Part shown: one piece after another, positions 14,575 to 16,784 of the stretch
How the letters are laid out: every line of letters begins with the position of its first letter
Position numbering within the stretch: position 1 is the stretch's first letter
Source: Gemmatimonadota bacterium
GTDB lineage: Bacteria; Gemmatimonadota; Gemmatimonadetes; Gemmatimonadales; GWC2-71-9
Direction: 5' to 3'
DNA length: 64,000 bases
NCBI GenBank assembly: GCA_039591615.1
Contig: JBDHDH010000027.1
Location: forward strand, 6,585 to 70,584
Notes under the pieces: generated by a model
What the model was told of the DNA's origin: nothing
Databases searched by the model: none
The model's input: only the letters and a program-made list of their open reading frames with translations
Position numbers and translations under genes: made by a program

Positions 14575-16221
14575 TCAGAAGAAAAACCCCCGTCCGAACA
14601 CTACGACCCAGCGACGGCCTTCGAATCCGTCGCCAAAGCGATACGCGACGTCGAGGCGGCCGACGTTTGGACCGGAGGAACGTGTGGCCCCGAACCGGAT
14701 GCCTGCCCCGATGTCGCCCCCAAACCGTGCCGGCTGGTCCGGATACCAGGCTCCGCCATAGTCCACGAAGCCCGCGAACCCCACCCCGAGTAGGTTGAAG
14801 AGCTCGTCGATCACGAACGCCCGGTGCTCGATGGATCCCCACACCGCGCGCTCTCCGGTGAACGCATGAACATCGAACGCTCGCGGCCCGATGCCATGTC
14901 CCAGGTCGATCTCCTGGCCCGGCGGTGTACCCTTGCGGGACATGGCCTCCACGTGGAACACCGTGGCGCTCTTGCGAAGCGCCTGGGACACGAGGGTGAA
15001 ACCCGCCCATACTTGACCTGAGTCGAGCCCGGCGGACGTAAAGAGCCCGTTGGCCTGGGCGGAGAATCGCATCCACTGCTTCCCCAAGATCGCGCCCGTC
15101 TGAAAGAATCCCCGCGGCCCTATGCCCCCGCGGTCATAACCCAAGGCTGTCGGCGCCAGCCACATTCCGACGAGGAGTCGCGTGCTCAGGTCGATATCGA
15201 CATCGCGGTCGAACCCGATGTAGTGGGTGGTGACCTTGTAGCGCGCCCTGTTGAGATCGGCGAAGAAGCCAACCGATCCCGTCACGGTATCGGGGATGGC
15301 GGACAGGCTGTCCGCTTTCGGGAAATACTCCTCCCGCTTGACCTGGCCGGAGATGCTGAGCCGCACGTATCCGCCCGGGCTCGCGACGGGCGCATACGCG
15401 AACGTGCCCCGCTGATAAAAGAAACGCCGGCGAAACACCTGGGAGAGCTGGCCGTTTCGGAACTGCAACATGTCCCGCCGAGCGGCCGCGCCCTGCAGTT
15501 CGAATGCGGCCCGATCCTCGAGGGCGCGGAACGGCCGCGCGAAGGCCCACTGGCCCACCTCACCGTCGCTGAGGTCGTCGTAGAGTCCCGCCACGGAGAG
15601 TCGCGAGCCCAGCGGGCGGTCCCAGCGTCCCAGCAGGGTGACGGCGGTGCGGTCGGGTTCTTTGCGATAGGTGATGCCAGCCCATGCGCCCGAGCCGAGG
15701 ACATTGCGTTCGAGCAAACCCGCCGACCACGAGAACGTCCCGCCGGTGGACCGACCGTTGAGATTGAGGTCGGTGCTCCATCCGTCTCCGGTCCTGAGGT
15801 ACACGGTGACCGAGTCCCCGTGCTGTACCGTGTCGGCAACGACGTCCCGAAAGATCCCCAGCGTTCGGAGATTTCTCAGCGACTCCTCGACCCGTGCCGA
15901 ATCGTAACGATCACCGACCTCGAACAGCAGCTCCCGTTGGATCACGTAGGGCCGCGTGGTGAAATGCAGCGCGTTGGCGATGCGGAAGAACGCGCTGGAA
16001 CGCGCCTCGTCGGGATCAAAAACGTCGTGATTGACGATGACGATGCTGTCGATGACGGGCCCGCTCGTTTTCCCGCCGTCCTGCGCGAGAAGAGGGCAGA
16101 GGGCAGAGGGCAGAAGGCAGAAGGCAGAAAGTAGACGCCTGAAGAGGGCAGAAGGCAGAGGGCAGAGGGCAGAGGGCAGACTCCTGAAGGCAGAGGGCAG
16201 AGGGCAGAGGGCAGAAGGCAT
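14575..16221 (-). CDS. Omp85/BamA-family outer membrane protein (POTRA + surface-antigen beta-barrel)
   Basis: The C-terminal Bac_surface_Ag-type barrel ends ...VVFGRGFFF, and a POTRA-like segment begins [15 protein letters not shown]. The only in-frame ATG giving a signal peptide is at 16221, inside the heptamer array. The track start at 16284 overlaps the upstream four-helix-bundle gene. Confidence 0.8.
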
Positions 16222-16226
16222 AGGGA
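16091..16226. repeat. tandem 7-nt repeat array, left arm (units AGA[G/A]GGC, i.e. GGCAGAG phase)
   Basis: There are about 18 units in blocks of 6 (16091-16132) and 12 (16143-16226), with a short spacer and two degenerate units. It is the reverse complement of the right-arm unit. Confidence 0.95.
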
Positions 16227-16228
16227 GA

Positions 16229-16581
16229 TTAGCGGCGGTTCGTCGCACGCTTGATGCTCGCCACGAGAATGGAGATGAGCTCATTCGCCTCAGCCGTCAC
16301 GAGATCTGGGCTGGATGTCGCGCAGAGTTTCATCCGTCCCACCAGCGTTAGCCAAACGAGCGTCTCCCGCAGTTCCTTTAAACATGTCCGCATCTTGTGG
16401 GCAAAATCACGCTTGGATTCGGCTCCTTGCGCCTCGGCATAATTCGCCGCTGGCGATGTGGAACTGCGGATGAGCTGCCTCGCAACGTGGCTGCCCAGCT
16501 CGTCCCTCGGTAGTTGGTACAGACAGATACAGCGAATTCAATCAGTCGATCCTCGAGATCTTGCCGACGACTGCTCCCCAT
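16229..16581 (-). pseudogene. four-helix-bundle protein gene (TIGR02436 / 23S rRNA intervening-sequence protein, Avd-like), frameshifted
   Basis: Frame A reads MGSSRRQDLEDRLIEFAVSVC. Frame B continues LYQLPRDELGSHVARQLIRSSTSPAANYAEAQGAESKRDFAHKMRTCLKELRETLVWL...[20 protein letters not shown]. Each frame hits a stop beyond the junction near 16515-16535. The span is 353 nt, which is not a multiple of 3. Confidence 0.8.
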
Positions 16582-16654
16582 CCTGCCACGCTCTAACCTG
16601 AGCGCATGATGAGCCAGTTCCAACACCCGCACTGCGGACCTTAAGAACGCACAC

Positions 16655-16784
16655 CTCTGCCCTCTGCCCTCTACCCTCTGCCCTCTACCCTCTACCCTCT
16701 GCCCTCTGCCCTCTACCCTCTGCCCTCTGCCCTCTGCCCTCTGCCCTCTACCCTCTACCCTCTACCCTCTGCCCTCTGCCCTCA
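16655..16784. repeat. tandem 7-nt repeat array, right arm (18 units CTCT[G/A]CC)
   Basis: Perfect 7-nt periodicity with 11 G-type and 7 A-type units. The partial 19th unit contains the glnA stop codon (complement of 16782-16784). Confidence 0.95.

Follow-up and report, generated by a model that had tools for sequence, protein, structure and literature searches.

Complementary heptamer arrays around a four-helix-bundle pseudogene between glnA and an Omp85-like gene in a Gemmatimonadota bacterium

Structure of the locus

The DNA analyzed here, called the window throughout, is a 64,000-nt stretch of the genome of a Gemmatimonadota bacterium (GenBank assembly GCA_039591615.1, contig JBDHDH010000027.1), and all coordinates refer to it. 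The genes for glutamine synthetase (glnA), for a protein of the four-helix-bundle (4HB) family and for an Omp85-like protein all lie on its minus strand, and the 4HB gene is enclosed by two long tandem arrays of a heptamer that are complementary to each other (Table 1). The same architecture, here called a cassette, was found around 4HB genes of other bacteria, and the copy in the window stands at an extreme, its arms being about four times as long as usual and its open reading frame (ORF) dying.

The right arm, which is upstream in the sense of the genes, was detected by Tandem Repeats Finder at 16654-16783 with period 7, 93% matches and 0 indels, and it overlaps the glnA stop codon TGA (16782-16784). 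The left, downstream arm has the same period with 78% matches and 4% indels and is interrupted at 16130-16146 (AGTAGACGCCTGAAGAG) and at about 16181-16188. The arms are inverted relative to each other, and 83-nt arms are 86% complementary, in many registers. All 26 GGCAGAR dimers in the window fall inside the two arms (26/26), with a chance expectation of 0.18. The core between the arms measures 428 nt (16226-16653). Two inverted period-7 arrays around a 4HB-family core had been described in a sequence-only reading of this DNA, and the repeat finder, the inverted alignment and the profile scores bear this out. The statement that all unit variants are G/A is correct for the right arm, but the left arm also contains GGCATAG, GGCAGAC and AGTAGAC. 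Likewise, the left arm had been presented as about 18 units of the exact reverse complement; it does consist of about 19 inverted units, but these are interrupted and degenerate.

After repair of its frame, the core gene scored 72.3 bits against TIGR02436 (cut-off, 24) and 49.4 bits against PF05635 (gathering score, 33.8), confirming the family that had been proposed. A profile of 21 relatives of the 4HB protein matched PDB 2RLD at E = 6e-23, and none of the PADLOC defense models matched the protein. The 4HB gene is not intact. It is split in two frames by a 10-nt deletion at 16516/16517 relative to strain L122, a frameshift that the sequence-only reading overlooked, and it lacks an intact ORF of about 120 amino acids (aa). 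The ORF in the window is a pseudogene.

Table 1. Features of the glnA-omp85 region in the window
Feature	Position	Strand	Basis
glnA, type I glutamine synthetase, upstream neighbor	16782..18185	-	TIGR00653, 549 bits
Upstream arm, sense (GGGYAGA)n, 18.6 perfect-period heptamers, starting in the glnA TGA	16654..16784	-	Repeat finder
Leader of about 70 nt, from the upstream arm to the 4HB ATG	16582..16653	-	>98% identical in L121 and L122
4HB (TIGR02436/PF05635) pseudogene, stop TAA at 16229-16231	16229..16581	-	Profile hidden Markov models, strain alignment
Downstream arm, sense (YUCUGCC)n, 18.9 units, two interruptions	16091..16225	-	Repeat finder
Omp85-like gene, one POTRA domain and presumed barrel, downstream neighbor	14575..16284	-	Frame open from 16284

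Decay of the 4HB gene in near-identical strains

Two metagenome contigs, L121 and L122, have the same glnA-4HB arrangement, with cores about 99% identical to that of the window. The 4HB gene of L122 has a 5-nt deletion that shifts the frame, and that of L121 has a 63-nt in-frame deletion through which a conserved helix is lost. The presence of different deletions (10, 5 and 63 nt) in three cores that are about 99% identical indicates that the ORF is undergoing decay. In the upstream arm, the heptamer is repeated 18.6 times in the window, 20.6 times in L121 and 7.6 times in L122. The downstream arm is 135 nt long in the window and in L122, the two strains that cover it; the L121 contig stops right after the 4HB gene. 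These results show that the lineage loses the ORF by independent deletions while the arms persist. The upstream, non-coding arm slips freely and changes copy number, whereas the downstream arm, which overlaps the frame of the neighboring gene, is stable in length. All array lengths derive from short-read assemblies, and the exact lengths are uncertain because these assemblies give three different upstream copy numbers at one locus.

Heptamer arrays beside 4HB genes in other bacteria

A scan of metagenome contigs with an alignment of 4HB relatives yielded 80 loci. A period-7 array was located within 150 nt upstream of the 4HB gene in 41 of 74 loci and within the same distance downstream in 58 of 77. 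On the same contigs, at more than 400 nt from the gene, 14 such arrays were detected in 164.8 kb, or 0.013 per 150 nt. The enrichment beside 4HB genes is thus 40- to 60-fold, and it is still several-fold if all background arrays are assumed to be intergenic. Among the tandem-repeat rows near 4HB genes, 121 of 182 had period 7 and 36 more had period 14 or 21, compared with 14 of 111 with period 7 among the rows far from them.

The arm unit varied by locus (GAATATC, CAATGTC, GATTGTT, GAATGCA and others). Units were compared by mean cyclic Hamming distance. Between the upstream unit and the reverse-complemented downstream unit it was 0.97, compared with 3.25 in direct orientation. When partners were permuted between loci, the distance was 2.05 +/- 0.15, and 0 of 2000 permutations fell below 1.47. 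When the 260-nt flanks were aligned, the median score was 45 in inverted orientation and 19 in the direct control. These results show that at each locus both arms use one heptamer in complementary form and that this heptamer differs between loci. Heptamer copy number near 4HB genes had a median of 4.3 and a maximum of 9.6, in short-read assemblies that under-sample long arrays. The arms in the window are therefore exceptional, at about four times the usual length.

On complete plasmids, inverted heptamer arms were found at 12 of 16 4HB genes, 9 by the repeat-finder criterion and 3 by eye. Plasmid cassettes of this kind occur in Nostoc, Dolichospermum, Gloeocapsa, Planktothrix and Chlorohelix (phylum Chloroflexota). 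The arms are (TAATTCG)4.7 and (AATTACG)4.7, both perfect, in Nostoc flagelliforme and GAAGTCG/ACTTCCG in Nostoc punctiforme and Nostoc commune, and the downstream array on plasmids often starts in the 4HB stop codon. Treponema (Spirochaetota, L214), which is outside the 12 of 16, has large period-7 arrays on both sides of its 4HB gene, with 41.1 copies upstream, 11.0 downstream and a further array of 6.6 copies; its units were not scored as inverted. The cassette architecture thus recurs across phyla.

The complete plasmids also bear on whether the arrays in the window were created by assembly. The arrays are about as long as short reads, the L121 contig ends after the gene, and the copy number varies with the assembly, all of which would be expected of an artifact. 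The locus with both arms was nevertheless assembled independently in the window and in L122, and complete plasmids of cultured strains have arrays arranged in the same way, so that an assembly artifact is hardly credible.

Plasmid 4HB genes sit within operons and return at identical junctions of multi-gene systems. The 4HB gene lies between or beside cas2 and cas1 on three cyanobacterial plasmids (L210, L218 and L220), follows a helicase-related gene at three loci (L211, L219 and L225; an N6-methylase gene comes next in L211), and is located between a DUF1156 gene and a Swt1-family HEPN gene in L222 and L224 and between an RND adaptor and its permease in L226. Duplicate copies on Nostoc plasmids were considered as evidence of mobility and rejected, because a larger region is duplicated. 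A group II intron domain and an Acido-Lenti-1 RNA were found near 4HB cassettes of the metagenome (L167, 2104-2256, and L178, 1053-1097, respectively).

Insertion of the cassette as a block of DNA

Pairs of near-identical cassettes were found in unrelated surroundings. The loci L180 and L185 are 95.7% identical over 557 nt with unrelated flanks, and the block they share has a perfect 19-bp terminal inverted repeat (GGGTGCAATACAAAAAAGT) at its edges and the heptamer arrays and the gene inside. The loci L163 and L186 are 89% identical over 503 nt, a block that is bounded at the heptamer arms, and the pairs L146/L187 and L153/L205 behave in the same way. Near-identical cassettes in unrelated flanks, with their edges at the arms, show that the cassette moves or inserts as a block; the sharp boundaries are those of relatives' cassettes and not of the window's own copy. 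Since the cassette is a discrete insertable unit of DNA, its arms are also terminal inverted repeats and not an RNA stem alone.

The glnA-omp85 site was compared among three relatives that are roughly equidistant, with Omp85-like proteins 75-77% identical. In L207, the order after the glnA stop codon is (GAACGCA)n, an intact 4HB gene of 120 aa, (TGCGTTC)n and omp85, and the arms are without G-tracts. In L206, glnA and omp85 are separated by a spacer of about 455 nt with neither arrays nor a 4HB remnant, and the Omp85-like protein has a normal signal peptide. This spacer is unrelated sequence and is not a clean empty site. In a more distant relative (60% identical), a hydrolase gene fills the spacer between glnA and omp85. 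A paralog, L123, has GAATGTA/TACATTC arms.

Heptamer arrays without 4HB genes

The exact sequence (GGCAGAG)4 occurs in at least 120 genomes of many phyla, including Cyanobacteria, Actinomycetota, Planctomycetota, Bacteroidota, Chloroflexota and Deinococcota; the counts are for this heptamer alone. A Xenococcaceae metagenome-assembled genome (MAG), Niastella yeongjuensis and Lyngbya have several copies per genome. A 4HB gene was near the array in only 2 of the 120 loci, L050, which has inverted arms, and L072. Inverted period-7 pairs were present at 22 of the 120 loci; 3 to about 1200 nt separate the two arrays of a pair, and this interval has other coding content or none. No 4HB-like ORF was seen in the gaps of 14 inverted array pairs, judged by eye without a profile scan. 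The sequence-only reading had named arrays lacking any association with 4HB genes as an observation that would count against it, and that situation exists in part. The association is strong from the 4HB gene to the arrays and weak from an array to a 4HB gene.

These counts raise the possibility that the arrays in the window are ordinary intergenic heptamer repeats, of the short tandemly repeated repetitive (STRR) or the GGGNATC quadruplex type, that act on the glnA 3' end or on omp85 expression and have met a 4HB gene by coincidence. Heptamer arrays near sense-strand stop codons are a described class, with GGGNATC quadruplex repeats near stop codons on the sense strand in Xanthomonas and Nostoc (PMC4692102) and intergenic TAACTGA arrays in Beggiatoaceae (PMC4679880). 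The arrays in the window resemble these repeats and the cyanobacterial STRR sequences in being tandem 7-nt units of non-coding DNA, with variable copy number and often only a few bases from a stop or start codon (PMC4692102; PMC4679880). The sense upstream arm has G3 tracts, as the GGGNATC repeats do (PMC4692102). The (GGGYAGA)n unit fits a G3-N4 quadruplex motif, and (GGGYAGA)18 right after the glnA TGA is a predicted quadruplex motif on the sense strand, having at least 4 G3 tracts with short loops. Most genomes with (GGCAGAG)4 have it without a 4HB gene, and the window itself has a solitary heptamer array after a stop codon at 42697-42743.

Several observations separate the cassette from this class. 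The parts of PMC4692102 and PMC4679880 considered describe single direct arrays and mention no 4HB gene, in contrast to the complementary inverted pair around a 4HB gene in the window. The unit of 4HB cassettes changes from locus to locus, unlike that of intergenic heptamers, and the orthologous site in L207 has other heptamers, without G-tracts. The enrichment beside 4HB genes, the complementarity of the arms at each locus and the movement of the cassette as a block, arms included, already largely refute a coincidence, which is left very unlikely.

The solitary array in the window has the sense unit GAATGCT/GAACGCT in 6.7 copies (42664-42743) and fills the spacer from the stop of one minus-strand ORF (42740..43819) to the start of the next (41882..42673). 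In the region 42650-42770, there was no notable fold (z +1.3), no 4HB gene and no inverted partner for this array. Elsewhere, GGCAGAG-type inverted arrays enclose a non-coding stretch of about 250 nt in two Eubacteriales MAGs, where the sites are orthologous (L022, 1347-1689; L027, 2459-2774), and arrays of 15.9 and 37.9 copies bracket a pentapeptide-repeat gene in Lyngbya (L035, 5103-6669). Alternating arrays about 150-290 nt apart occur in L026 (6927-7716) and L111 (7064-7713), in one case beside a topoisomerase-like ORF. The Eubacteriales 4HB cassette with GGCAGAG arms (L050, 5062-5968) contains three tandem copies, each of about 200 nt, of a segment covering the 3' part of the gene, and every one of them has a GGCAGAG-like unit and a small hairpin after it.

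Comparison with rRNA intervening sequences and other known systems

The S23p/4HB family is very large and, to our knowledge, has no known function outside Avd of diversity-generating retroelements (DGRs). Members of the family are encoded in intervening sequences (IVSs) of rRNA, whose nature and origin have been in question since about 1990.

The IVS of Coxiella burnetii is a 428-nt insert in helix 45 of 23S rRNA with an S23p ORF and a 28-bp terminal stem, and the heptamers GACAGAT (three copies) and GACAGAA are located just before the ORF (PMC4990558). RNase III was shown experimentally to cut this IVS at the start of the first heptamer, and Coxiella strains vary in heptamer number (PMC4990558). 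The S23p ORF has suffered a 176-bp deletion and non-synonymous changes, and the authors ranked the RNA part above the protein; 23S rRNA IVSs with ORFs are also found in Leptospira (PMC4990558).

The cassette in the window shares with the Coxiella IVS a 4HB/S23p ORF within a loop whose stem is built from terminal inverted repeats, tandem heptamers immediately ahead of the ORF (GACAGAT and GGCAGAG have 5 of 7 bases in common), heptamer copies that vary by strain, an ORF that decays by deletions, and the position of this ORF on the sense strand of the host transcript. It differs in that it is located between two protein-coding genes and not in rRNA, in that its arms are about 130 nt long compared with the 28-bp stem, and in that one arm is part of a neighbor's coding frame. 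The IVS-like character first suggested for this locus is accordingly retained for the inverted arms, the 4HB ORF and the strain-variable heptamers. It is incomplete as a description, as the cassette also behaves as a unit of DNA, and the involvement of RNase III would be by analogy.

No Rfam family matched the cassette region even at E <= 1, and there are no rRNA genes in the 64-kb window by the same search; a minus-strand tRNA gene at 51958-52030 is the sole Rfam match in the window at the gathering score. Among the 80 relatives, 10 have the 4HB gene 17-80 nt from the 3' end of 5S rRNA, convergent with the rrn operon (L127, L128, L131, L132, L134, L136, L179, L182, L183 and L193). At these loci the interval between the 4HB gene and 5S contains a heptamer-array hairpin, and the 23S-5S spacer contains a second one, ORF-less, whose unit is specific to the locus. 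These results show an affinity of the cassettes for rRNA operons.

The 4HB protein belongs to the fold family of DGR Avd (PF05635), but its closest solved structure by sequence is 2RLD, an uncharacterized protein. No reverse transcriptase was found among the immediate neighbors or the called genes of L121 and L122, a search that left the rest of the window unscanned and did not include template and variable repeats. The cassette resembles miniature inverted-repeat transposable elements (MITEs) and the system of repetitive extragenic palindromic (REP) sequences and their associated tyrosine transposases (RAYTs) in that a small gene is flanked by an inverted repeat that is also scattered alone, and in its discrete edges in unrelated flanks. 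It differs from RAYT and MITE systems in that the repeat is a tandem heptamer array and not a palindromic unit, and from REP/RAYT in that no link is established between the solitary arrays of a genome and its 4HB genes. We know of no nuclease or transposase activity of a 4HB protein.

A literature search on TIGR02436, PF05635, S23p, heptamers and STRR found no paper linking 4HB genes generally to heptamer arrays. None of the literature searched stated that complementary-heptamer 4HB cassettes sit outside rRNA, and only the Coxiella IVS paper mentioned heptamers, in passing.

Predicted fold and strand asymmetry

The 714-nt minus-strand RNA was predicted to fold at -426.4 kcal/mol (z -18) with the arms paired along nearly their whole length, so that the long stem proposed from the sequence was recovered. 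The predicted fold of the plus-strand RNA was -361.4 kcal/mol (z -10), which gives the sense strand an advantage of 65 kcal/mol. In the best arm-to-arm alignment of 133 positions, there were 108 Watson-Crick pairs, 14 positions that form G-U pairs in the sense strand only, 1 that does so in the antisense strand only, and 7 transversions.

From the unit variants, the sequence-only reading had argued that the arms are kept by selection on an RNA hairpin in the minus-strand transcript, made visible by exclusive variation from G-C to G-U. The difference in predicted fold energy and the ratio of 14 to 1 in the window are in its favor. In 49 other cassettes with good arm alignments, the asymmetry was absent: there were 96 sense-only and 101 antisense-only wobbles, and 16 loci leaned one way and 21 the other (sign test, P = 0.51). 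In the window, the asymmetry stems from two variant units, GGTAGAG in the upstream arm and TTCTGCC in the downstream arm, that were copied by slippage, so that the count represents about two events. By a hand count over the seven unit positions, a random transition would be sense-compatible in both arms in about one case in four. On the non-template strand, both variants read as C-to-T changes, the direction expected from transcription-associated deamination; this process would explain them as well as selection would. The GGCAGAA units in the upstream arm of L122 represent a change of the opposite kind. Selection on RNA would be compatible with the asymmetry but is not demonstrated by it, and the specific claim, that such selection keeps the arms and that the variants reveal it, seems improbable.

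Proposed origin and fate of the cassette

The cassette in the window is probably a decayed copy of an IVS-type insertable element, consisting of a 4HB gene of about 120 aa and terminal inverted repeats of tandem heptamers, whose arms became over-expanded; our confidence in this reading is moderate. A scan of positions 15900-17000 predicted no sigma-70-like promoter and no intrinsic terminator. Because the three genes are on the minus strand with no terminator predicted between them, a read-through transcript from glnA is expected, in which the two arms would form an RNA duplex of some 130 bp. By analogy with the Coxiella IVS, this duplex could be a substrate of RNase III. Cleavage would cut the cassette RNA out and set the 3' end of the glnA mRNA. 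As tandem arms pair in any register, slippage in one arm leaves the stem intact, and this register-independent pairing may be a reason for the persistence and growth of the arms. The element would then spread as DNA and be removed or neutralized as RNA, two roles that are compatible with each other. This is the logic long proposed for IVSs.

Several points weigh against this proposal. RNase III cleavage at the locus in the window is transferred from Coxiella, and a cut in the stem would also fall within what is presumed to be 5' coding sequence of the Omp85-like gene. The 49 cassettes have no strand-specific wobble signature, and the sequences do not separate selection on RNA from selection on DNA. 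No transposase was found with the cassette, and no consistent target-site duplication was found at L180, L185, L163 and L186; the L185 cassette is flanked by a possible CATTGAAA repeat, and nothing comparable is present in the other three. No clean pair of filled and empty sites was found among the relatives, as L206 lacks the cassette but has an unrelated spacer. The L123 cassette and the cassettes at cas2/cas1 loci are anti-oriented to their neighbors, so that a dependence on read-through transcription is not general. Between the window and L207, the 4HB proteins are 58% identical, compared with 75% for the Omp85 proteins, and this is no closer than the 62% shared by the window's protein and its paralog in L123. 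These identities do not distinguish one old insertion with concerted change of the arms from two separate insertions at this site. Finally, 98 of the 120 (GGCAGAG)4 loci are solitary arrays.

In an alternative reading, the arms are solely DNA-level terminal inverted repeats of a MITE-like element, serving insertion, excision or recombination (for example, as a hairpin or cruciform), with the RNA stem as a by-product. Discrete boundaries at inverted repeats in unrelated flanks, the presence or absence of the cassette among relatives at the glnA-omp85 site, the lack of a G-U strand asymmetry over 49 loci and the occurrence of either orientation relative to neighbors are all in line with this alternative. 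On the other hand, no transposase or recombinase is recognizable in the element and a target-site duplication was not seen, the Coxiella homolog is processed as RNA at its heptamers, ORF-less heptamer hairpins occur in transcribed rRNA spacers, and the sense strand in the window has the more stable predicted fold by 65 kcal/mol. A role confined to DNA is possible but doubtful on this balance.

A wider form of the preferred reading, that of an IVS-type insertable cassette, is more speculative and, in our judgment, rather unlikely. Heptamer hairpins and the 4HB gene would together form an undescribed, phylum-spanning class of mobile elements with an affinity for rRNA operons, in which the Avd-like 4HB protein, as a factor belonging to the element, recognizes the array duplex or strand for mobility or RNA processing. 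The classical ORF-bearing IVSs of 23S rRNA would be landed copies, and solitary arrays and ORF-less hairpins, those of 23S-5S spacers included, would be footprints, related to the cassette as REPs are to RAYTs.

Intergenic heptamers and the heptamers of Coxiella were known already; the general bracketing of 4HB genes by complementary arrays, and its occurrence outside rRNA, were not described in the literature searched, and this pattern is of more interest than the single decayed copy in the window. As a rule, 4HB genes travel in cassettes with complementary heptamer arrays at both ends, and the arm unit changes in both arms together, locus by locus. The cassettes insert between ordinary genes, inside operons and beside rRNA operons, and the results suggest that IVSs are one of the places where a wider element has landed. 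The cassettes may also account for some of the surplus of heptamer repeats that has long been noticed in bacterial genomes.

The Omp85-like neighbor

Profile matches of the Omp85-like gene are weak, one to POTRA and others to BamA/TamL, and the relatives of its protein are Gemmatimonadota proteins of about 523 aa. The left arm falls within the open frame of this gene, where it codes for PSALCPL repeats and a signal-peptide-like stretch. No canonical start codon was found at the usual distance at this locus. Candidate starts upstream of the QDG codons are an ATG at 141 nt (16221), a GTG at 165 nt and an ATG at 201 nt (16284); the first is present in the window only, and the other two are inside the 3' end of the 4HB gene. 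In L207, the only nearby start of the Omp85-like gene is a TTG 39 nt upstream.

An array in the 5' part of an open frame could act as a phase-variation switch, in which slippage by one unit shifts the Omp85-like frame and turns the gene on or off. The frame is open through the whole left arm, the canonical starts are upstream of the arm or at its edge, and 7 is not a multiple of 3. However, the left arm is 135 nt long in both strains that cover it, in contrast to the 7.6 to 20.6 copies of the non-coding right arm, and its interruptions and degeneracy suppress slippage. The pattern of the left arm looks like selection for a fixed frame, and a switch of this kind is very improbable.

The mature Omp85-like protein probably begins at QDGG, at about 16080. 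At the position of the signal peptide, array-encoded residues precede QDGG in the window (array-encoded residues|QDGG), where a relative has MSRFVAVFFFLACIPVGLAVA|QDGE. This suggests that the inner, degenerate part of the downstream arm was taken over as the 5' coding sequence of the Omp85-like gene, in the signal-peptide region, which would be a possible example of an arm recruited to encode the signal peptide of a neighbor.

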